A DNA stretch of 64,000 nucleotides. Origin: a virus. Its lineage: Duplodnaviria > Caudoviricetes. Each line of letters opens with the position of its first letter. Positions within the stretch are counted from its first letter, which is position 1. The notes beneath the pieces were generated by a model, which was given only the letters and a program-made list of their open reading frames with translations, had not been told where the DNA came from and ran no database searches. The translations under genes were made by a program, and so were the position numbers. The stretch spans positions 32,001-96,000 of IMG/VR virus record IMGVR_UViG_3300021255_005861. One strand, written 5' to 3'. Positions 4,604-64,000 of this stretch are shown piece by piece.

Positions 4604-6058
4604 GTGAACTACCCACAGCCTAAAAGGCTGTGAGCTTCGAGTTTTCGCTTCGACGGAGCCACTTGTACTAACCCAGCAGAACTGGGAAGCATAGAGGAGG
4701 CTACCTCAGCGGAGGCGTGTTCCACGCACTCAGCACGTTTAGTCGTGCCAAACAAAAGTACATTACAGGCGGAATGCCAGTCTCTGGGCTTGGTGTATCC
4801 GCAATCACAATGATATGTGCGTTCATCCAACCCAATCTGATTGACTGCACCGCATACCGGACACATCTTGGTTGTCGGCAACCACTTTGACAGCACGAAT
4901 GCACGGTCTGCCTTGGCCAGCATCTTAATGCGCTGTTTAAGGGCACCCATGCAAGAGTGCTGGACTTGCTTGCCGAACCACGTCTGGTGCCAGTTATTGA
5001 TTTGCTCGTCCTGTATGTAGATGACATCGTAGTTGGACACAAGGTCGTGGTAGATTTTGTTGCAGATGTCCTTGCGGACATTCGCAACATGTTCATGCTC
5101 ACGGGCAAGCTGCTTCCTACAGTTCCATCGCCGCTTGGAGTCCTTCTCTTTCTTGTGCCTGTTTAGCATCTTGCTCAGGTACTTCAGGTACTCGGTTTCT
5201 TGCACTTTGCAATCGTAGGTCTTGTTGTCCGATGTCGTTATCGTGTTCTTAATGCCGAAGTCCAGTCCGACACTCTTGCGGGTGCGGTTCCTCGGTTCCT
5301 TCGGTAGCATTACGCTAATCTTTACGTAGTAGCCAGATGCCTTCCTGATTAGCTTGGCATCGGCTATCTCATATTCCTCAAACTCTATCTGATGCAACCC
5401 GTTCACCTTCAGCTTCCTGAATCCAGGAATTGTGATGTGGCTTGCATCCAGAATCTTCGTAAAACCCGTAATGATGGGGATGCAGTTCACTTCCGACTTG
5501 AACTTCAATGCACCAACCTTGATTCCTTTCTTCTTGGCTTTTGCAAGGTTGATGATGTCTGTCTTCTTCTGTGCCACGGTAGCTCTATGGAGCACTGATG
5601 GCAAAGTAATCGGTGAATTGACCGGTTTCTTGTCCTTGTCGTAGTGGACTACATCCTTGTGCTCGGTGTACTTGTAATCGAACATGCTGTTGTCTGGGTT
5701 ATCTTTCGACAAGGACAGCATGTCGTTGACTACCCACTTAGCTTCCTTGAAACATTGGGCCAGCTTCTCGAACACCGATTTCGGGTTGTGCCGTATAGAA
5801 ACTTTAAGCTCGAATACTCGGCATATCTGCGACTTACGACGGGCATGGGTCTCAGCCATGCTCGCCTTAATCCTTGCCTTCGTATCTTCGCTTCTTACCA
5901 GTTCCATATCAAGTTTCTTGACTATACTTATAGTTTAGACGGTTTACTCAATAAATATATCTATTTTTAACGGGTATGAAATGTTATTTATTTCTTACAT
6001 TTGCTATCGGCGGGTCTTACCCACGCCCTAAAGGGCGTGAGCTTGCGACCGCCTATTT
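4604..6058 (-). mobile_element. IS200/IS605-family TnpB-only (IS1341-like) element
   Basis: Related subterminal hairpins at 4611-4637 and 6019-6044; right end GGGTAGTTCAC; TTGAC next to the left end; no tnpA. Confidence 0.8.
4609..5907 (-). CDS. tnpB: TnpB RNA-guided nuclease-like protein
   Basis: VGLDFGIK (RuvC-I), TTKMCPVCG...CDCG zinc finger, RDWHSACN (RuvC-III). Confidence 0.9.
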   Translation of the reverse strand: MELVRSEDTKARIKASMAETHARRKSQICRVFELKVSIRHNPKSVFEKLAQCFKEAKWVVNDMLSLSKDNPDNSMFDYKYTEHKDVVHYDKDKKPVNSPITLPSVLHRATVAQKKTDIINLAKAKKKGIKVGALKFKSEVNCIPIITGFTKILDASHITIPGFRKLKVNGLHQIEFEEYEIADAKLIRKASGYYVKISVMLPKEPRNRTRKSVGLDFGIKNTITTSDNKTYDCKVQETEYLKYLSKMLNRHKKEKDSKRRWNCRKQLAREHEHVANVRKDICNKIYHDLVSNYDVIYIQDEQINNWHQTWFGKQVQHSCMGALKQRIKMLAKADRAFVLSKWLPTTKMCPVCGAVNQIGLDERTYHCDCGYTKPRDWHSACNVLLFGTTKRAECVEHASAEVASSMLPSSAGLVQVAPSKRKLEAHSLLGCG

Positions 6059-44130: not shown

Positions 44131-46380
44131 ATGAGTAATGCCATAGCCAACATGAGCCAGTCCGACCTGTACAAGGCGGCGGCACTTGCCGAGGGGTACG
44201 AGTCCGTACCCGTAGACATAGAAACGTTTATTAACGACCCGCAGTACCTCGGACAACTGTTCGCAGGCAACGTCTATCCTTACTGGATGGAGCGCCTGAA
44301 GAAGATATACCCGAATCCGTTCTATTCCCCTGCGCAGGAAATACTAATAACCGGCTGTATAGGCGCCGGAAAGAGTGTTACCTTTTACACACAAGTTTGT
44401 TGTGAGAATACGAAAAAACTAGCAAAGAATATTACGCTTGGCGACAAGGTGTGCGGCACGGACGGGCGCTACTACCCCGTGCTCGGCATCTTCCCGCAGG
44501 GTGTCCTCCATACCTACACGCTGGACGTGCAGCTCCAATCCCCTGACGGAGACCCTGATGACGAGCCCTACGATAGCGTGGACACCAGCGACGACCATAT
44601 CTGGACGGTATACGAGGACGGGGACAAGAAGGACATGCTCACGTCCGAAATCGTGGAAGGCTTGAAGGCTGGCCGTACCTTCTGCCTGCCTACATTGTAT
44701 GGCGACCCAGGTAGGTACTTTTGTGGGTGGCATGACGCAGGATTCCAGGAATGCGTCTGTTTCCATGTGGGCAGCCCCGACCATTTGTTCGCCGTGAACA
44801 ACGGCACGTTCACGCACAATACCACGGTATCGCTCATAGGCATCCTATACGACCTGTACCGCATAACGCTCCTACGCAACCCGCACAAGAAGTGGCACCT
44901 AATCCCCACAACGCATATCGTGTTTACGCTCATCACGGCGACGATGGATCTCGCAGGAGTGGTTCTTGCCGACCAGATCATCGACGCCATATCGGCCTCC
45001 CCGTACTTCTGCTCAAAGTTGATGCCGGGTAAAGGAGACCACATCGATGAGGATATGTTCCCTCATCGCGTGGGGATATCCTTCGGTTCCCGCCAGCGTC
45101 ATAGCATGGGTAAGGCTGTTATCGGTGCTATCCTTGACGAGGCGAACTTCCAGGACGCGGTTGCCGACCAGGCGGTAAAGAACTACAACAGCATCAAGCG
45201 TCGTATGGAATCCCGCTTCATGTCCAAGGGCGGGGAACTGCCCTGCCGCCTGTGGATAGTCTCGTCCCGTACGGACAATGCTTCCTTCCTGGAGAGCCAT
45301 ATCGACGCCAACCGGAACAATCCCAAGGCGTTCATATATGAACCCGCCATATGGGAGATCAAGGCGCACCTCGGCATCTACAGCGGGAAGACATTTCCCG
45401 TGTTCATCGGCTCGGACGTGGAGCAACCAAGAATCCTACATTCGGAAAAGGAGATGGACGACTACATGGGGCGGACCATACAGGTGCCCGTAGAACTCCA
45501 GGAGTCCTTCGAGAACAACCTGCCGGGAGCATTGCAGGACTTGGCGGGCGTGGCCACCCGCAACGGCGTCAACCTCATATACAACGTGGAGGCACTAGAC
45601 AGGTCGATGTGCCTCGACAACTGCATGAAGTCCGACGAACTGCACCTCACGCTCGACGGCGACGACCAGATCGCCGACTTCTACAAGGGCAACCTACCGC
45701 AGGGCAAGTACTACGTCCACCTGGACGGCGGCCTCAAGAGCGACCGCTTCGGCTTTGCCATGACCCGAGTCACCGAGCACATATCGGTGGATGTGACCTC
45801 CGCCGTGGACGGTATGAAGACGAGCCGCATCAGCCCCTCCGTGGAAACCCCCCTCGTGTTCGGCATCAAGGCGCTCCCCGGATCCGAGGTGCCGTTCTGG
45901 AAGGTGAGGCAGTTCCTCGTGTACCTGCGCTCCCAGAAGGTAAGCATCGCCCTCGTCACGTGCGATGGCTACCAGTCCGCCGACATGATGCAGTTGCTGA
46001 TTAAATTGGGCTTCAACGCCAAGTACGCCTCCGTGGACCGCACGAAGGACCCGTATTTGAAACTGAGCAGCAACATACTGCTCGGGCTCATAAAGATGCC
46101 CAAGTCCCCTATCCTGCGCAACGAACTGATGAACCTGCAGAACCTGCCCAAGAAGATAGACCACCCCGCCACGATAATGGTGGACGGGAAGCAGGTCGCG
46201 GGCGGAAAGGACATCGCGGACGCCGTGGCCGCCAGTTCCTACGAGGCGATAGGGGCGTCCATGACGCTCGGCGCATCCTCGCTCATCAATATGCAGAAGA
46301 GCGCCCCCGTGCACATGAACATGCGGGAGCGCCAGGAGTTCGTGATGGAGAAATTCCTCAAGATACCGGTTCGGCGGTAG
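44131..46380 (+). CDS. terL: terminase large subunit with intein
   Basis: Walker A GCIGAGK[intein]TT, Walker B AILDE, nuclease motifs VHLDGG, TCDGYQS, KIDHP, KDIADA. Confidence 0.9.
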   Translation: MSNAIANMSQSDLYKAAALAEGYESVPVDIETFINDPQYLGQLFAGNVYPYWMERLKKIYPNPFYSPAQEILITGCIGAGKSVTFYTQVCCENTKKLAKNITLGDKVCGTDGRYYPVLGIFPQGVLHTYTLDVQLQSPDGDPDDEPYDSVDTSDDHIWTVYEDGDKKDMLTSEIVEGLKAGRTFCLPTLYGDPGRYFCGWHDAGFQECVCFHVGSPDHLFAVNNGTFTHNTTVSLIGILYDLYRITLLRNPHKKWHLIPTTHIVFTLITATMDLAGVVLADQIIDAISASPYFCSKLMPGKGDHIDEDMFPHRVGISFGSRQRHSMGKAVIGAILDEANFQDAVADQAVKNYNSIKRRMESRFMSKGGELPCRLWIVSSRTDNASFLESHIDANRNNPKAFIYEPAIWEIKAHLGIYSGKTFPVFIGSDVEQPRILHSEKEMDDYMGRTIQVPVELQESFENNLPGALQDLAGVATRNGVNLIYNVEALDRSMCLDNCMKSDELHLTLDGDDQIADFYKGNLPQGKYYVHLDGGLKSDRFGFAMTRVTEHISVDVTSAVDGMKTSRISPSVETPLVFGIKALPGSEVPFWKVRQFLVYLRSQKVSIALVTCDGYQSADMMQLLIKLGFNAKYASVDRTKDPYLKLSSNILLGLIKMPKSPILRNELMNLQNLPKKIDHPATIMVDGKQVAGGKDIADAVAASSYEAIGASMTLGASSLINMQKSAPVHMNMRERQEFVMEKFLKIPVRR
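44374..44820 (+). mobile_element. mini-intein (149 aa) in the TerL Walker A motif
   Basis: Starts S-V-T-F-Y-T-Q-V, block B T..DH.W, ends THN followed by Thr; no endonuclease domain. Confidence 0.85.
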
Positions 46381-46744
46381 GCTTCTTTCCGTAGTCCTCG
46401 CCGTAGATGACCTTGGCCCCGATTATCTCGCGCAGGGCGTAGCGGGTCTTGCCGTTGAGGTTGTCGTGCTGCATCCTGTAGAACTCGACGCAGTTCTCCA
46501 CGGGGAGGTCCTTGAACAGGTTGACGACTGTCGCGTCGGCGGGTTCCTTGTAGGAGGGCTTCTTGCGGTTTTCGGGGGCGGGGCCGTCGGGATAAATGGT
46601 TTTTGTTCCTACGAGGGCTCGCATGAGGAAGCGGGACTGGAAGGGGAATTCCTGGGCGTGCTCCTTATAGAACGTCAGCGCCTCGTTGATGGGGGCTTTC
46701 GAGAACCAGTTCAGTTTTTCCTTCAGCTCCAGTGGGATGTTCAT
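46358..46744 (-). CDS. hypothetical protein with two internal repeats
   Basis: F...P......FY / R..LR...G.K.IY occurs twice. Confidence 0.7.
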   Translation of the reverse strand: MNIPLELKEKLNWFSKAPINEALTFYKEHAQEFPFQSRFLMRALVGTKTIYPDGPAPENRKKPSYKEPADATVVNLFKDLPVENCVEFYRMQHDNLNGKTRYALREIIGAKVIYGEDYGKKPTAEPVS

Positions 46745-56161: not shown

Positions 56162-57097
56162 ATGAACTACGGCTTTGTGGACATTTACAGGGACATACCG
56201 GTAGATGTGGTATTCGAGGTGAACTCCGCAAGGAAGGGCAAGGGTAAGATACCCCTGGACCGCCTCGTGGACATGCTCAAGGTGGAGTTCAACGTAAAGG
56301 GGTCGGCCACGGTGGCGGAGATATCCGCCATGACCGGTATGCATATCGGGGATACGTGGGCCGTGTCGGACAGCGGGACGCTCCCGAGCGGACTCGCACT
56401 GACCGCAGGCGACCTGGTGCGCTGGGACGGGAGCGAGTGGAAGCTCATACTCCACATCGACTTGAGCGCCTACGCCACGAAGCAGGAACTGGACACGGAA
56501 GCGTCCGCCCGCGTGGCTGGGGACGAGGAATTGGCCGGGTACATCTCGGAGCACCTGCAGGACAAGGACAACCCCCACGAGGTCACTGCAGGACAGGTAG
56601 GGGCGTACACCAAGTCTGAAACTGACGAGGCCATAGCGGAGGCGCTTTCGGGTGAGATCGGCGGATGGCTGGGCAACCTTACCGTGGCGGAGGTGAACGC
56701 CCTCACGACGCATAGGAAGGGCGACAGCGCCACGATGCTGGACTCGGGAATAGTTATGCCTGGCAACGTGTCCGTGAGCGTCGGCGACGACATCATGTGG
56801 GTGGACTCGCTCGGCGTGTGGCAGCCGAAGATATCCGACCGCTTGCACCACGACACAACACTCGTGGGCACGGGCAGTACGAACGACCCCATCGGCGTGA
56901 ACCCGCAGGAGGTGGTCACGTCGGGCAGCATCGCCAACTTCGTGGAACAGGAAAACGACTCCTCGGACACGTTGAACATAGTGACGTCGGTGACGGCGTC
57001 GAACGGTAAACTAAAGGTAAAGAACAAGTCCGATGTCGGACTGTACTTCATCGGAAGCGCACACAGGATGGGCTTCGGAACATACTGGGAAGGTTAA
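56162..57097 (+). CDS. tail fibre-associated structural protein
   Basis: GDLVRWDGSEW, DLSAYATK, NPHEVTAGQVG motifs typical of fibre proteins. Confidence 0.7.
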   Translation: MNYGFVDIYRDIPVDVVFEVNSARKGKGKIPLDRLVDMLKVEFNVKGSATVAEISAMTGMHIGDTWAVSDSGTLPSGLALTAGDLVRWDGSEWKLILHIDLSAYATKQELDTEASARVAGDEELAGYISEHLQDKDNPHEVTAGQVGAYTKSETDEAIAEALSGEIGGWLGNLTVAEVNALTTHRKGDSATMLDSGIVMPGNVSVSVGDDIMWVDSLGVWQPKISDRLHHDTTLVGTGSTNDPIGVNPQEVVTSGSIANFVEQENDSSDTLNIVTSVTASNGKLKVKNKSDVGLYFIGSAHRMGFGTYWEG

Positions 57098-57099
57098 TC

Positions 57100-59787
57100 A
57101 TGGCAGATACATACAGGCCCTACGTAGCGGAACTCGCGGACAAGCGCGGATACATCCACCCGATACATGCGAAGCAACTCGCGGAGGAACGCACCGTCAC
57201 GATGACGGGTGACGTGACGGGTACGGCGAACTGGGACTTCGGGGAGCCCGCGAGCGCATCGCAGGCGTCCGAGTCCATGGCCCTCAGCATCGGCGAGCAG
57301 AAGGTCACGACGCCCAAGCTGGCCGACGGGTCGGTAACCACTCCCAAGGTGGCCGACGACGCCGTGACGCTTGCGAAGATAGACGACAACGCGATGAACG
57401 GCACGGTGCAGGACAACGACTCCAAGCTGGCGACGCACGCCGCGGTCAAGACGTACGTGGACGCGCAGATAAGCGGGCAGGGCACGTACCTCGGCAAGAA
57501 GACCGTGGCCGAGGTCAACGCGATGGTGACGGCGAACCTGCACAACGGTGACCGCGTGCAGATGGCCGACGCGGGCACCATCAACCTCGGTCCGGGTGGC
57601 GTCGGGTTCGACGTGGTGGCGGGCGAGGACCTTATCCTGTACAAGTCCGGGAGCACGGTGCAGTGGGACACGATGGACGGGGACTTCAAGACGAAGCAGA
57701 CGCCCGTGTCCGACCCCGCGGCGGACGGCACGACCATAACCGCCATCGACACGGTATCGCAGAACGCAAACGGCGAGATAACGGCAACCAAGAAGACGAT
57801 ACGTACCGGCAACGGGTCGAATATCGGCGTGGTCAAGCTGTCAGACTCCACCAGTTCCACGTCCGGCGTGAGCGGTGGCGTGGCGGCCACTCCCGCCGCT
57901 GTAAAGGCGGCCTACGACCTGGCGTCGAACAAGAAGGACAAGCAGACCGCCATCGACACGGACACGTCGTCGGGGTCGGGCAAGGGCGGGACTACGCGCA
58001 CGCTGACGCGCCTGCAGCAAGATGCGAACGGCGTCATCACGCCTACGTTCGCTGACATACCCACGGCCTCGGAGCAGACGAAGGGCCTGATGGGAACTGC
58101 CGAGTACACGAAACTGTCCGGGATAGCCGAGGGTGCTGAAGTCAACCAGAACGCCTTCGGCAACGTGAAGGTCGGGAGTGCCACTATAGCGGCTGACTCG
58201 AAGACGGACACGCTGGAGATAGCGGGCGGTACGGGTATAGACGCAGTCGGGGATACGACCAACGACAAGGTGACGCTGTCTCTGAACTCGGCAACGCAGG
58301 CGTCGCTCGGAAAGGCCGATAGTGCCGTGCAGGACGTGACCGTTGACGGGGTCAGCGTGGTCAACTCGTCCACGAAGGTAGCGGCAGTGCCGAACGCCAG
58401 CACTAGCGCGAAGGGCGCGGTGCAGTTGGCGGGTAGCATCGGGGCGACCGTAGCCTCCGAGAACAACAAGGCCGCGACGGAGAAGGCGGTAAGGGATGCC
58501 ATCAACGCTCTCGATGCCGAAGTGACAAGTAATGACGGCACGAACGTTCAGGTCAAGGTGACGGAGGCCGACGGCAAGATAAGCGCGGTCAATGTCACGA
58601 CGGACAACACCGAGAACAAAAACAACAAGGTGTCCTCGTGGCAGACGACGCCGGACAACACGCACTACCCGAGCGAGAAACTCGTCAAGGACGAGCTGGA
58701 TGCGAAGGCGGATGCGGATAGTGTTGTGGCGATTGCTGACGCATCTGTATTACGTCGCGGACAGGTCGGTCAAGGGTGGTACAAACTCGCAGAAACTACA
58801 ACTCCCCGTGCTAACTACAATATAAACTCGGTTTTTGACGTAGTTGCATCAACGTCTAATTGCGGTGAACTTCGAGGTTCTTTCGTGATGAGCGTTCGGT
58901 ACGAAGGCACCGGCGTAGTCAATGTATTTACGAAATCATTGTTCAGCGATGACTGGTCTTCTGATTATCCTATTAAGATTGTTACTACTAAAGTATCTAG
59001 CACTGTGCTTAAAGTGGAACTGTTTTTCGGTGTTAATCCGAGTAATACGACTACCGCCGTATACTCAGGAATAAGCCTCTCCGAACAAAATGCGGGAAAC
59101 TACGGCGGCGTCAATAAAAAGAATGCTTGGACTTACACGAGTTACACGGATGTTGCGGGCTCTGCCTCTCCAGAGCCCGACCCTACATCGGACAAGGAAG
59201 TCGTAGACGTTGACATTGTGGCTCGCCAGCACGCCATCGCCTCCCCGACGAACAACAACCTCGTGGCGATGGACGAGAGCGGACTAGTCAAGGACAGCGG
59301 GCTCACGAAGTCGTCCGTGGAGAGCGCCATCACGTCCGCAGGAACCGCCATACAGGGCGTGAAGGTCAACAACACCACGCTCACGCCGGACGCGAACAAG
59401 GTGGTGACGGTGCCGCTGGCCACGACGAGCGCGGACGGCGCGATGAGCGCTGCGGACAAGACGAAACTGAACAATGCCGCTACGTACACGCAGAGCAGCG
59501 GTACAGCGCCCGTCAAGGTGGACGCGTATGGCGCTTTGACTGCAGTCCCGATGGACAGCACTCCCACCGCGTCGTCTACCAACCTAATGACGAGTGGAGA
59601 CATCAAGACCGCGCTGGACGAGGCCATTGCCACTAGCCTGACCGATGTGGAATACGTGGCCGCACAGAGTGGCGGTGGCGGCAACCTCAACAAGACGAAG
59701 AACGGCACCACGACATCCGTGCTGTCCTTCATGACAACCGCCGAGGCCACCTCCCTGTGGCAGTCCGCGTGGGCTGCCGCCAACTAA
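57100..59787 (+). CDS. tail fibre protein
   Basis: VTTPKLADGSVT repeats, GVVKLSDS..AATPAAVKAAYD, GAMSAADKTKL. Confidence 0.8.
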   Translation: MADTYRPYVAELADKRGYIHPIHAKQLAEERTVTMTGDVTGTANWDFGEPASASQASESMALSIGEQKVTTPKLADGSVTTPKVADDAVTLAKIDDNAMNGTVQDNDSKLATHAAVKTYVDAQISGQGTYLGKKTVAEVNAMVTANLHNGDRVQMADAGTINLGPGGVGFDVVAGEDLILYKSGSTVQWDTMDGDFKTKQTPVSDPAADGTTITAIDTVSQNANGEITATKKTIRTGNGSNIGVVKLSDSTSSTSGVSGGVAATPAAVKAAYDLASNKKDKQTAIDTDTSSGSGKGGTTRTLTRLQQDANGVITPTFADIPTASEQTKGLMGTAEYTKLSGIAEGAEVNQNAFGNVKVGSATIAADSKTDTLEIAGGTGIDAVGDTTNDKVTLSLNSATQASLGKADSAVQDVTVDGVSVVNSSTKVAAVPNASTSAKGAVQLAGSIGATVASENNKAATEKAVRDAINALDAEVTSNDGTNVQVKVTEADGKISAVNVTTDNTENKNNKVSSWQTTPDNTHYPSEKLVKDELDAKADADSVVAIADASVLRRGQVGQGWYKLAETTTPRANYNINSVFDVVASTSNCGELRGSFVMSVRYEGTGVVNVFTKSLFSDDWSSDYPIKIVTTKVSSTVLKVELFFGVNPSNTTTAVYSGISLSEQNAGNYGGVNKKNAWTYTSYTDVAGSASPEPDPTSDKEVVDVDIVARQHAIASPTNNNLVAMDESGLVKDSGLTKSSVESAITSAGTAIQGVKVNNTTLTPDANKVVTVPLATTSADGAMSAADKTKLNNAATYTQSSGTAPVKVDAYGALTAVPMDSTPTASSTNLMTSGDIKTALDEAIATSLTDVEYVAAQSGGGGNLNKTKNGTTTSVLSFMTTAEATSLWQSAWAAAN

Positions 59788-59805: not shown

Positions 59806-61848
59806 ATGGCTGAATCATACGACGAAAAGGGGATACTTGGAAAGGAACTTAAGTCCATCCTTACCGGAGTGGCCTCCGAGATAAAGAAGAAACTGGACAT
59901 CGACGACGTAGAGACCGTGGACGGAACAGCCACCTTCGACGCCGAGAACCACCGCCTAATCTTCAACAACATCATCTTCGACTCCATCTACCCGGTCGTA
60001 GGCAAGTACGGCCTCGCCGTGTTCCCCGAAACCACCAACGACCCCGACGCCACCGAGTCCGCGGGCGACCCCGAGTGGCTCCTGGACTGGCGCCCCTACC
60101 TCGTGGACATGTCCGCTGTCGCCGGCGAGACCGCCAAGACCCCCGTCGCCTCCCTCCAGCGCGACAACTGGCTCCGCTCCGTGGACGGCTCCTTCGCCCC
60201 CGTCTGCGGCGTCAAGTCCACCCAGGCGAACGCCCTGAACAACCTCGCCGCTTCCCTCTACTGGGACTCCGCCAAGACGAACCTCGTCACCGCCATCTGC
60301 CCCGGCGCGTACGACGCCTCGGGCAACTTCCAGGCCGAGTACTTCTGGAACTACGTCAAGGACAACCTCTCCACGGTCAACGCCAAGGCGGGCATAACCT
60401 ATTCCTGCCCGATAGAGGTCAAGCTGTACAGCGGGTTGGCTACGTACGAGTACGGGGCGTACACCGACTACCACATCCCCGCCCCGTGGGAAACGACCGA
60501 GACCAAATACTCCGTGTTCGTCGGGCGCGCCTCCGACGTGTACGTCGTGGACGGCTACTCCGAGACCACGGGCGAGCACATGCGCGGGCTCGCCGCCAAG
60601 GCCGTCCCCGTGGGCAGCGAGGGCTTCGACCCCGAGTTCTACCGCCTGCGCCGCACCGGCATCTCCCCCGGACCCTCCACCACGGTAGGGAACAAGGTGC
60701 GCAACTTCTTCTACAACTACAAGGGCGTGGACTCCAACATGGCGGGACACAACGGGACCGCCTCCACCGGCATATTCTACAACAACGGCACGTATCCCCG
60801 CACCGTAGACGCCAGCCAGTACAGCACGGCCTCGTGGTCGCGCGCGTGCAACTCCGGGGGAAGCTCCGGGAACGCCGTGCCGGTGGGCGAGATGGGCTAC
60901 CACGCCCTGAACGCCTTCCTGTGCTCCCTGGAGGCGGCGTACGGCACCCGCAACCTGTGGGATGCCAACCGCTTCAGCGAGGGCGTGAGCGCCAACTTCT
61001 CCGCCTCCGCGGCCAACGGTGGCGTCAGCGTCGACGGCACGTGGAAGAAGTGGGATACCTTCGAGTCCACGCTCGGCGTGTCCGGCAACTACTCCACGAC
61101 CATAAACAACCAGTACGCCAAGTTCCAGTGCATGGAACCCCAGATTGCCGCCTCCCTCGCCACCGAGATGGGGATTTCCGCCGGCACGTCGTTCCACTGG
61201 AACGGCGGAGACTGGCACTTCGAGGTGCCCTCGAACCTGGGCACCGTGAAGACACTGGGAGGAGGGGCGATGAACTGCCGCATGTACAAGCTCACCGACG
61301 CCAAGACGGTGAACGGCCATACGGTCAGGTGCAACCTGGTGTGCGCACTGGCCGAGGGCGTGAACCCCGTCGGCGACATCTGGTGGTACGTGGGCGGCGG
61401 TGCCGAACTAGTGTACCTCACCGACGGCACCGGGAACACCAACTACAAGGCATTCTTCTACCTGGAACCGGACCAGGCGAAGTGGGTGAATACCAGCACC
61501 ACCGAGAAGATTACCTCGGGGACATTCGCCTTCGAGTCGTCGTATAGGAAACTGCTCGACGCAAGCACCGCGGGTGGACTGGGAAACACGTACTGCCTGG
61601 CAAGGACCGGGTACACGCCCGTCAGGAGGGTGCCCGGAGGCGCGAACAACACCGGCGAATGCACCTATCAGTACAGGCAGATTGACGACGACGCCAAGGG
61701 TTCCGCGGGGATACGTTCCCGGCGCAGGATGATGTTCCGTGGCCGTGCGGCTTACTCGTTCTGCTCGCCCCGCTACCTCAACTCCGGTGGCCGCCCGTCC
61801 CTCGCCAGCGTCAACCTCGGTTGCGCTGCCCAGGTTCTCCTTGCATAG
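59806..61848 (+). CDS. DGR target protein (putative receptor-binding protein with C-terminal CLec-like VR)
   Basis: C-terminal 39 codons match TR; follows the tail fibre gene. Confidence 0.88.
   Translation: MAESYDEKGILGKELKSILTGVASEIKKKLDIDDVETVDGTATFDAENHRLIFNNIIFDSIYPVVGKYGLAVFPETTNDPDATESAGDPEWLLDWRPYLVDMSAVAGETAKTPVASLQRDNWLRSVDGSFAPVCGVKSTQANALNNLAASLYWDSAKTNLVTAICPGAYDASGNFQAEYFWNYVKDNLSTVNAKAGITYSCPIEVKLYSGLATYEYGAYTDYHIPAPWETTETKYSVFVGRASDVYVVDGYSETTGEHMRGLAAKAVPVGSEGFDPEFYRLRRTGISPGPSTTVGNKVRNFFYNYKGVDSNMAGHNGTASTGIFYNNGTYPRTVDASQYSTASWSRACNSGGSSGNAVPVGEMGYHALNAFLCSLEAAYGTRNLWDANRFSEGVSANFSASAANGGVSVDGTWKKWDTFESTLGVSGNYSTTINNQYAKFQCMEPQIAASLATEMGISAGTSFHWNGGDWHFEVPSNLGTVKTLGGGAMNCRMYKLTDAKTVNGHTVRCNLVCALAEGVNPVGDIWWYVGGGAELVYLTDGTGNTNYKAFFYLEPDQAKWVNTSTTEKITSGTFAFESSYRKLLDASTAGGLGNTYCLARTGYTPVRRVPGGANNTGECTYQYRQIDDDAKGSAGIRSRRRMMFRGRAAYSFCSPRYLNSGGRPSLASVNLGCAAQVLLA
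61718..61834 (+). repeat. DGR variable repeat (VR)
   Basis: 117 bp; 10 mismatches to TR, all opposite TR adenines. Confidence 0.95.
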
Positions 61849-61857
61849 GGGGACACC

Positions 61858-61907
61858 CGGCGCGCAGCGCCGCACGCAGTGCGGCCAACGGCACGGCGCA
61901 GCCGTGC
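61858..61907 (+). promoter_or_regulatory. three GCA-loop hairpins downstream of VR (homing signal)
   Basis: CGGCGC-GCA-GCGCCG, GCCGCAC-GCA-GTGCGGC, GCACGGC-GCA-GCCGTGC. Confidence 0.75.
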
Positions 61908-62053
61908 GTAACGTACAAACTATCAAGGAGGTGCTCCGTATAAACTAACACGGGTCGGACTGCCGACCCCGGTACGGCGGACAGGCGAGCGAACGCAGCA
62001 TCAGGACCGCGTCTACGAACCCGAACTACGCCGTAACGAACGGGACCGACGGA

Positions 62054-62170
62054 CCCGGCGCAGGATGATGTTCCGTGGCAATGCGGCTAACACGAACTGC
62101 TCGCCCCGCTACCTCAACTCCGATAACCGCCCGTCCCTCGCCAGCGTCAACCTCGGTTGCGCTGCACAGG
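62054..62170 (+). repeat. DGR template repeat (TR)
   Basis: AAT/AAC-containing copy of VR in an intergenic position. Confidence 0.95.
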
Positions 62171-62323
62171 CTAGGCTAGACTCGAGCAATGCAGAAACTA
62201 CGCACGGTCCCGTGCCCAAGAGAGGCGAACATAAAGTACAAGGTCCCGGAAGGCGAGAGCCCGAAGAGGGGACCGACCGGCACCGCCGGTCACGCTGCCC
62301 AAACCTGGGCGGCGAGTCATCAA

Positions 62324-62347
62324 GCCCGGAAACTACCGGGCGTTTTT
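62324..62347 (+). terminator. putative terminator of the TR RNA
   Basis: GCCCGG-AAACTA-CCGGGC-GTTTTT; the RT stop codon lies in its loop. Confidence 0.6.
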
Positions 62348-63688
62348 CATCCCGTCCGGCAGCGCCAGGTTTCCCCGTGCACAGTACAGCTCGCGGTTAG
62401 TAGTGCCTTTGAACATGTAGCCCATAGAGTTCTCGAGTTCGCAGCCTTCTATCGGCAGCACGTCCTCGCCCGCCGCTATCAAGGCCTTGACGCGGGCGAG
62501 GAACTCCACGACGGCGGGTGCTTCCGTCTTGGCCGTGTAGCGCAGTTCCCTTCCCGTGGGCTGTCCGTCCACATACTCGGGCACGCCGACGAGCAGGCGC
62601 ACCCAGTTCGGCGTTTCCTTCCCGTCCTTGCCCTTCGCGTAGCGTAGCGAGAAGTCGTACAGGTTGAACGGGGCTCGGGCGAGTTCCTTGATGGCGATGG
62701 GTTCCGCGTCGAAGGCACGGTCTATCTTTATCTTTTCCGTGAGTTTCGCGAAGTTCATCCTTTCCTCTATAGATTTCATCGTGTCGTAGGAGTCCGTGTG
62801 CCGCAATATACCAAAGTACGACGCCCACGACTTGTCGGACCTGCAGGCGCGGGCGCGTTTGAGGATGTTGCGCCGTACCCGCGTGTACTTGCCTTCCCGG
62901 TATACTACGAGCCCGCAGAAGGACACGGGGCACCTGTCCATGTCCACAATGGCGGGGTTGCGCTTGGCGAGCACGCCGTACTCGTACCACCAGAAGTTCT
63001 TGATGCGCCACTTGGCGGCATTCGCCTCCTCCCTTGTGCGGAAGAACAGGATAATGTCGTCGGCGTAGCGGAACTTGGGGCCGGGGACTGACCCGAGCCA
63101 GCGGTCGAAGGCGAGCATGATGATGTGGTGGGCGAGCGGGGACGTGGGCGTGCCTATCGGGAACGAGTTCACGTGGAACGTGACGGCGACGCCGAAGTCC
63201 ACGAGTTCCGGGTCGTCCGTGAGGGACTTGAGGGCGCGACGAAATAGCCTCCTCGTCATGTGGCCGTAGCAGTGGCGCTGGTCGATGTGCAGGGCGTAAT
63301 GCAGGTCGGTGCGGGAGTAGACGACGGACTTGAGGCGGTGGGCGAGGGAGGTGTCCGGGTTGCGGGCGTGGATGCCGTAGCCCTTCTTGCAGTTGAAGGC
63401 GACGTGAGGGTCCATCTTGCCGTATAGTGGCTGGACTAGAAGGATGAACAAATGCTGCAGGACTCTCGTGAAGAGCGACGGCTGCTCTATGTGGCGTTGT
63501 TTGCCGTTCGAGTTGGTGGTGTCGAACTCGCGGTAGGACAGGGGGTAGTCGCGGAGGGTTACGGCTCGGGCTACGGCCAGGGCGTAGTCGTTGGGAGAGT
63601 CGAGCATGGCACGCACCTCCGCCCTGCGGGAGTGGCCGCGGGCGGCGTTCTGCATGGCCAGTAAAATTTGTTCGAAAGAAACCTGCAT
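62333..63688 (-). CDS. DGR reverse transcriptase with ~135-aa C-terminal extension
   Basis: GKQRHI, RVLQH, KKGYG, PIGTPTSP, FRYADD, SFCG, SYFG. Confidence 0.92.
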   Translation of the reverse strand: MQVSFEQILLAMQNAARGHSRRAEVRAMLDSPNDYALAVARAVTLRDYPLSYREFDTTNSNGKQRHIEQPSLFTRVLQHLFILLVQPLYGKMDPHVAFNCKKGYGIHARNPDTSLAHRLKSVVYSRTDLHYALHIDQRHCYGHMTRRLFRRALKSLTDDPELVDFGVAVTFHVNSFPIGTPTSPLAHHIIMLAFDRWLGSVPGPKFRYADDIILFFRTREEANAAKWRIKNFWWYEYGVLAKRNPAIVDMDRCPVSFCGLVVYREGKYTRVRRNILKRARACRSDKSWASYFGILRHTDSYDTMKSIEERMNFAKLTEKIKIDRAFDAEPIAIKELARAPFNLYDFSLRYAKGKDGKETPNWVRLLVGVPEYVDGQPTGRELRYTAKTEAPAVVEFLARVKALIAAGEDVLPIEGCELENSMGYMFKGTTNRELYCARGNLALPDGMKNAR

Positions 63689-64000
63689 CTAGGAAATCCG
63701 TTGCGTTTGAACTATATTGTATAGTAAAAAGGAAAGGTACGCATGGTAGAGATACGCGAGGTACAGTACAGGAAGGACGGCATACTGCACGTCCTCACGT
63801 TGCCGGGAGCAGTGCGCATAGAGGACATGGACGCGGATACGGTGGACGTGGAGCGTTGCATGGTCGAGGTGCTGGACTACCTTCGCCGCGAGTGCGTAAT
63901 TACGAGGAAGTAGAAGATGGCTACAGAGTACATATACGAACTGGGCGACAGCTTGAGCACCGGGGCATCGAGCAACGGTCCGCATGTCAAGGTAATAGCT

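Follow-up and report, generated by a model that had tools for sequence, protein, structure and literature searches.

The diversity-generating retroelement (DGR) of Bordetella phage BPP-1 has the order mtd-avd-TR-brt, in which TR is the template repeat. The 'inverted' Group 4 DGRs described by Schillinger et al. in 2012 carry the reverse transcriptase (RT) on one strand, and the TR, the variable repeat (VR) and the target gene on the other (PMC3521204). The members of this group, Shewanella baltica OS155, Vibrio sp. RC586 and Photobacterium angustum S14, are chromosomal DGRs of Gammaproteobacteria; their RTs cluster together, which suggests a single inversion, and the mRNA of the RT and the RNA serving as template need not be one transcript (PMC3521204). 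According to Wu et al. (2018), 29% of 372 DGRs have no accessory gene (Architecture A), and cases with TR and RT on different strands were also noted (PMC5758913). For the BPP-1 DGR, a duplex of upstream and downstream segments and the protein-binding stem-loops of the spacer are needed for cis-primed reverse transcription; the conservation of this RNA design was surveyed only among Avd-containing DGRs (bioRxiv 10.1101/2023.10.23.563531). The DGR analysed here lies in a window of 64,000 nucleotides, bases 32001-96000 of the 185,666-bp IMG/VR phage record IMGVR_UViG_3300021255_005861. It is best read, with a probability of about 85%, as a functional avd-less DGR of a large uncultured phage, the RT of which acts in trans on a plus-strand RNA composed of the TR and the adjoining spacer.

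The architecture of this locus is of a known kind. A first-pass annotation, made from the sequence of the window alone, implied a novelty that was overstated: the inverted layout was published in 2012 (PMC3521204), and avd-less and split-strand DGRs in 2018 (PMC5758913). Because both layouts are already in the literature, little is added here as an architecture discovery. What is new is a phage-borne and probably independent instance, conserved in at least ten lineages. Also new are a spacer RNA specific to the family and the additional domain of the RT, of which the DGR literature consulted gave no description. The core features of the locus, with the target gene taken from the list of open reading frames (ORFs), are as follows.

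59806-61848, plus strand: target gene, 680 aa, with the VR at the extreme C-terminus
61718-61834, plus strand: VR, 117 nt, differing from the TR at 10 positions, each of them an adenine in the TR
62054-62170, plus strand: TR, non-coding, on the strand of the VR and the target and opposite to the RT
62333-63688, minus strand: DGR reverse transcriptase, 451 aa, with a match to RVT_1 that exceeds the Pfam cut-off and one to phrog_1423 (3e-22)

The VR and the TR belong to the single direct repeat revealed by the repeat search, 122 nt long (61713-61834 and 62049-62170, offset 336); no further copy is present in the whole 185.7-kb record. Adenine occupies 21 of the 117 TR positions, and the hypergeometric probability that all ten mismatches fall on it is 4e-9. 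Nine of the ten VR changes are at codon positions 1-2, and AAY codons make up four of the seven changed codons (AAT>CGT, AAC>TAC, ACG>TCG, AAC>TTC, GAT>GGT, AAC>GGC and GCA>GCC). The target ORF stops 11 nt past the VR end. The alignment reproduced exactly the repeat coordinates, the length of 117 bp and the ten adenine-restricted differences reported by the first-pass annotation, and the same seven codon changes were recovered. Its description of a complete DGR also holds, with target and VR, TR and a DGR-type RT all present.

The RT ORF is the only large ORF following the TR. It lies 162 nt from the TR end, and the ORF list together with the repeat coordinates confirmed its position on the minus strand, convergent with the TR, as had been annotated. 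A profile of the RT family was built from 30 members and searched against the whole PDB. The best match was the BPP-1 RT, bRT (8ub7_A, E 2.6e-12), which outranked the Cas6-RT-Cas1, group II intron and retron RTs, and the alignment spanned nearly all of the 328-aa bRT. The AlphaFold2 (AF2) model of the RT has a predicted local distance difference test score (pLDDT) of 84.9. The first Foldseek match of this model was again 8ub7_A, with a template modelling (TM) score of 0.80 normalised on bRT and a root-mean-square deviation of 2.9 Å; the group II RTs scored about 0.60. By its best profile match and its best predicted fold match, both to the BPP-1 enzyme, the protein is assigned as a DGR-type RT.

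The catalytic motif RYADD is located at residues 207-211, where the family has R207, A209 and D210 without exception and varies little at Y208 and D211; P177-I178-G179 is also invariant. The YADD motif, and PIG rather than PQG, had thus been read correctly at first pass. In place of the DGR signature [I/L/V]GxxxSQ the window RT reads IGTPTSP (I178-P184). P184 is nearly invariant across the family and aligns to the Q of IGSLTSQ in bRT. This sequence is treated as a family-specific variant of the signature, because the adenine mutagenesis itself is observed. The RT domain (residues ~1-320) is followed by a conserved extra C-terminal domain (~328-451), which has no bRT counterpart. In the model, residues 328-420 form a confidently predicted three-strand/helix/strand domain, and the conserved tail beyond is of low confidence. 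An ESM-Atlas feature search with residues 325-451 returned unnamed clusters only, and the Atlas has no model of the RT protein. In a comparison with the relative L084, the ratio of nonsynonymous to synonymous substitution rates (dN/dS) is 0.24 for the RT as a whole and falls to 0.15 in the C-terminal domain, which indicates that purifying selection acts on the RT.

No avd gene lies between the target, the TR and the RT. The Avd models PF05635 and TIGR02436, searched in six frames against all 185,666 bp of the record, gave nothing at E<=10; the control genomes were detected. The small ORFs near the RT in the window and in the related loci L085, L086 and L090 were considered as avd candidates, and none had a Pfam match. 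The earlier claim that the DGR has no avd therefore also holds for the rest of the record, outside the window.

The searches yielded about 190 relatives of the RT that are full-length (430-480 aa). When IMG/VR was scanned with the RT, a single-protein query found no relative, and an alignment-based query found 182. Eighty IMG/VR loci were oriented on the RT and scanned for adenine-biased VR/TR pairs. Such a pair was found in 64 loci, and 63 of these have the order target-VR-TR-RT on one strand, with no space for avd. The closest of the scanned loci, L004 (57% RT identity), resembles the window: its TR and VR directly follow the RT on the 3' side and are on the other strand. The RT is likewise on the strand opposite to the spacer, TR, VR and target in L084 (92% RT identity), L085 (61%) and L089, L090 and L091 (59-62%). 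These five loci have 10-16 adenine-specific VR/TR mismatches each. Three more, P0009, P0019 and P0015, show the inverted layout in gene maps without DNA. In every convergent case the RT is the sole minus-strand gene inside a plus-strand block. A survey of homologous loci for TR/RT orientation had been proposed at first pass, and its outcome is that six DNA-verified loci and three gene maps share the layout of the window.

In the RT tree, which was rooted at midpoint only, the ten convergent loci form one clade (support 98/94), and all 19 co-oriented RTs are placed beyond a 100/100 branch from it. One layout change within the family would explain this tree, and we infer from the spread of the co-oriented state that it is ancestral. 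The locus L086, with an RT 55% identical to that of the window, branches between the co-oriented and the inverted clades. This locus has one RT and two TR-plus-spacer-RNA modules (L086:1836-2049 and L086:4914-5119). The TR of one module is co-oriented and directly upstream of the RT, and its VR is in a convergent 1394-aa fibre gene. The other module is 3 kb away on the other strand, with its VR in an 827-aa gene.

The spacer between the TR and the RT contains a structured element. Its predicted parts, and those adjoining it, are as follows.

62041-62048, plus strand: 5' strand of a long-range helix enclosing the TR, pairing with 62205-62212
62205-62277, plus strand: structured spacer RNA 3' of the TR, from alignments A2 and A3, RNAalifold, covariation and model R1
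62213-62217 with 62222-62227, plus strand: hairpin P1, from RNAalifold
between P1 and P2, plus strand: conserved single-stranded A-rich stretch, family consensus AAGACAAG, window sequence AAGTACAAG
62242-62247 with 62269-62274, plus strand: hairpin P2, from RNAalifold
62276-62281 with 62285-62290, plus strand: hairpin P3, from RNAfold of the window and six relatives and the spacer alignment
~62295-62313, plus strand: hairpin P4, from the same sources as P3
62324-62347, plus strand: intrinsic-terminator-like GC hairpin and T-tract, from the terminator scan, with the RT stop codon (62333-62335) in the loop

The TR-to-RT distance is 113-230 nt in all family members, and the conserved element lies inside this interval. 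The 8-16 nt preceding the TR pair with the nucleotides preceding P1, and this duplex is present in all 26 loci tested. Over 23 non-redundant loci the cognate duplexes have a mean energy of -20.0 kcal/mol, compared with -11.7 for non-cognate combinations, and none of 10,000 permutations was as low; the predicted TR-enclosing helix thus covaries. For P1 and P2 together, 89.5% of the cells in 23 sequences can pair, against 65.3% after shuffling and 36-57% with the partner slid. Double changes occur at all 11 pairs, in 67 cells against 21.6 expected. Covariation was counted for P1 and P2, and P3 and P4 are based on RNAfold and the alignment. The covariance model R1, built from those sequences, has one match in the window (61.6 bits) and one in the whole record. 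In loci outside the model-building set, R1 matched directly 3' of each TR and on the strand of the TR; among these held-out loci are L086, with a match at each of its two TR modules, the GenBank phage csAssE-Sib and three convergent loci that were added later. The Rfam scan of 61600-63800 at E<=1 found no family. A hairpin with a T-rich tract is located at the same place in four of the six other convergent loci (L084, L089, L091 and L004). The comparison indicates that the inversion moved the RT ORF and left the module of TR and spacer RNA whole, on the strand of the target.

Comparison with the closest relative, L084, bears on the activity of the DGR. Over 117 nt the two VRs have 15 differences, nine of which are at TR adenine sites. 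The remaining six coincide exactly with the differences between the two TRs; therefore each VR followed its own TR. This pattern indicates that TR-to-VR transfer occurred after the split of the window phage and L084, that is, within the inverted lineage. Among near-identical co-oriented relatives, the differences are mainly inside the VR segment.

The layout might be suspected to be an assembly artefact, with a true locus of the co-oriented form target-TR-RT, since the record is a metagenome-derived contig and the more distant family members (38-50% RT identity) are all co-oriented. However, six independent assemblies from other samples match the layout in DNA and three more in gene maps, with RTs that are 57-92% identical to that of the window and fall in one clade. 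The isolated minus-strand position of the RT in all of these loci, and the plus-strand terminator lying exactly over the RT stop, also speak against an artefact. Misassembly can practically be excluded, because the layout is conserved among RTs that form a monophyletic clade. Decay or silencing of the DGR, in which the RT or the TR RNA became misexpressed after the inversion and the VR/TR differences are relics, is somewhat easier to imagine but still quite improbable. In its favour, no promoter-like site was found for either unit, and there are just 54 nt between the RT start and the next divergent ORF. Against decay stand the co-evolution of VR and TR since the split from L084 (six mirrored TR substitutions, and nine further VR changes only at TR adenines), the low RT dN/dS (0.24) and the intact catalytic motifs. 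The layout is moreover kept across RTs that are 57-63% identical, each with an adenine-biased VR/TR pair of 10-18 mismatches.

A different question is how the template RNA is made. TR and RT cannot share one transcript, because they are on opposite strands; to this extent the separate transcription claimed in the first-pass annotation stands. Its further proposal of a 'stand-alone' RNA is doubtful, as no promoter was found in the VR-TR gap. In that proposal, the TR-spacer RNA would be a non-coding RNA with its own promoter in this gap, regulated apart from the target and the RT. The gap (61849-62053, 205 nt) is indeed non-coding and has a hairpin at 61952-61969, and the RNA has a defined 3' terminator. 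The second module of L086, remote from the RT and on the other strand, also suggests that such modules can work away from the RT. However, a scan of 61400-64000 gave no sigma-70-like promoter, which is weak evidence because the promoter type of the phage may differ. The sole TATAAA-like motif, a T4-late-like TATAAAC at 61939-61945, was rejected as a promoter, being broken in the 92% relative L084. No plus-strand terminator is present between the target stop and the TR, and read-through from the target is therefore the simpler reading. An own promoter is accordingly considered rather unlikely. The TR may be simply the 3' untranslated region of an mRNA that starts with the target and runs as far as the terminator (62324-62347). 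The position of this terminator suggests that it keeps the plus-strand transcript out of the RT gene. The first-pass suggestion that tropism switching could be regulated independently, or through convergent transcription, is speculative.

In the preferred reading, an avd-less DGR with the RT acting in trans, the target gene, the TR and the structured spacer RNA would be transcribed on the plus strand up to the terminator at 62324-62347. This RNA would most likely be produced by read-through from the tail-fibre/target operon, or else from an unrecognised promoter in the 205-nt gap. It would fold so that the helix 62041-62048/62205-62212 encloses the TR, followed by P1-P4. The RT would be translated from a separate minus-strand mRNA, bind the TR-spacer RNA in trans and copy the TR into cDNA, misincorporating opposite adenines. 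At the 3' end of the target gene, the cDNA would take the place of the VR, and up to about 10 codons of the probable receptor-binding tip might be varied in this way. The convergent order would have arisen once, in a family that is otherwise target-TR-spacer-RT on one strand, by a change of strand of the RT ORF alone. Speculatively, the C-terminal domain of the RT may hold the RNA in place of Avd, which does so in BPP-1.

Several points weigh against this reading. The transcript ends, the promoters of both units and the current activity are all deduced indirectly. The VR domain of the target could not be assigned to the C-type-lectin or the immunoglobulin fold, and the signature IGxxxSQ has P for Q throughout the RT family. 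The role given to the C-terminal domain of the RT is a guess, and neither a fold nor a family was found to match this domain. In two of the seven convergent loci (L085 and L090), no hairpin of the terminator type is clearly seen.

A more far-reaching proposal, which is tentative and more doubtful than the reading above, is that this RT family is a DGR lineage that does without Avd and has a ribonucleoprotein of distinct design. The β-rich RT domain (~328-451) would replace Avd and hold the family RNA, composed of the TR-enclosing helix, P1, AAGACAAG and P2-P4, and the RT would act fully in trans. If so, the RNA module would be sufficient in cis, which would allow both the RT inversion of the convergent clade and the service of two TR modules by one RT in L086. 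The terminator over the RT stop would then either separate the two convergent transcripts or couple them via antisense overlap.

Comparison with the BPP-1 system showed several similarities. In both, adenine-specific transfer from TR to VR alters the C-terminal end encoded by a gene of tail-fibre type, and bRT is the best sequence and fold match of the window RT. Both also have an upstream/downstream RNA duplex around the TR, structured spacer hairpins, and GC-rich hairpins after the VR. However, the window DGR has no Avd, and its RT is on the strand opposite to the TR. The window RT is also about 120 aa longer, with the extra C-terminal domain, and reads IGxxxSP rather than IGxxxSQ. The spacer RNA of the window has no sequence likeness to any Rfam family, and no C-type-lectin fold could be assigned to the target.

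The Group 4 DGRs of Schillinger et al. are similar to the window DGR in the strand layout, the single RT clade and the separation of RT mRNA and template RNA. They differ in that the window DGR is part of a large phage, where it sits among the tail-fibre genes, and is a member of a different, avd-less family with RTs of about 450 aa. The inversion in the window clade was probably independent of Group 4, as judged from the nearest co-oriented RT relatives. Architecture A of Wu et al. resembles the window in having a TR-RT core without avd, but that work was a survey of GenBank genomes.

Among the phages in GenBank, csAssE-Sib alone (OR575929.1, human gut, 151 kb) has a relative that matches the RT over its full length (38.7% identity). 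Its VR, initiation of mutagenic homing site (IMH), TR, IMH* and DGR RT are annotated, with no avd, and it has the same spacer RNA element (61.5 bits). Its order target-VR-TR-RT is, however, co-oriented, and it represents a distant co-oriented branch of the family. The literature search found no mention of phage csAssE-Sib. The spacer RNA element at L092:4872-4952 (OR575929.1 ~46356-46436) overlaps the annotated start of its RT coding sequence. That coding sequence is annotated from position 4935 of the locus, and homology begins at 5001; the real start codon probably lies downstream of the annotated one.

If the preferred reading is right, the convergent clade offers a natural case, in at least ten phage lineages, of a DGR RT working on a template RNA that is never co-transcribed with it. 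The co-oriented relatives delimit the RNA that stays with the TR to about 62040-62315, ending at the terminator. It is thereby a compact candidate for the RNA part of a minimal DGR that acts in trans and is free of Avd, consisting of the RT and about 300 nt of RNA. Such a minimal system would be useful for the study of DGR priming outside the BPP-1 model and for the engineering of targeted diversification.

The target gene is directly preceded by two tail-fibre-like genes (56162-57097 and 57100-59787), and its neighbours match Phage_fiber_2 of Pfam and tail-fibre PHROGs. The target protein itself gave no match in the Pfam and PHROG searches. Its last 230 aa are homologous to the VR-bearing target ends in 28 related loci, and one of these targets bears the annotation of a putative tail fibre. 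A receptor-binding role of the target is plausible by gene position only. The PDB profile search of the VR domain gave a best E of 0.8 (Ephrin receptor), and a Pfam scan of 29 homologues gave nothing usable. An alignment-based AF2 model of the last 230 aa was poor (pLDDT 55). When this low-confidence model was compared with 48,161 chains by VIA-align, the best Z was 3.6 and nothing usable was found; the C-type-lectin variable protein of Nanoarchaeota reached a Z of only 2.5. The VR-bearing C-terminal 230 aa of the targets in L089 (L089:6922-7611) and in the window (61156-61845) are 90% identical, and the RTs of the two loci are 61% identical. This comparison suggests that target tips might be exchanged between phages independently of the RT.

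The homology of VR and TR stops at 61834 and 62170, respectively, and the sequences diverge beyond. RNAfold of both flanks revealed the following feature after the VR and not after the TR.

61858-61907, plus strand: three consecutive GC-rich hairpins with GCA triloops

Comparable hairpins with GCA loops are present 3' of the VR in L084, L085, L089, L090 and L091. In BPP-1 the IMH is followed by a GC-rich inverted repeat, to which these hairpins might correspond.

The genome-wide scan for adenine bias found one other pair, outside the window. It is a tandem direct repeat of 108 nt, 95% identical, at G000:C1:1418-1645, 30 kb upstream of the window start. All five of its mismatches are at T of the plus strand, and no spacer RNA element adjoins it. 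It was rejected as a part of the DGR and is probably an ordinary tandem repeat.

Next to the RT, a 56-aa ORF (63743-63913) is divergent from it, with 54 nt separating the two start codons. Its counterpart adjoins the RT in L084, none is present in more distant relatives, and it has no family match. The ORFs after the RT region encode proteins of 628 and 612 aa, two of about 150 aa without matches, and a transposase pair. The transposase pair (L003:5301-7215, which is G000:C1:100900-102814) is located about 5 kb past the window end and consists of a 205-aa serine-recombinase-type protein (phrog_6620) and a 435-aa protein (phrog_506). It looks like an insertion element within the phage structural region.

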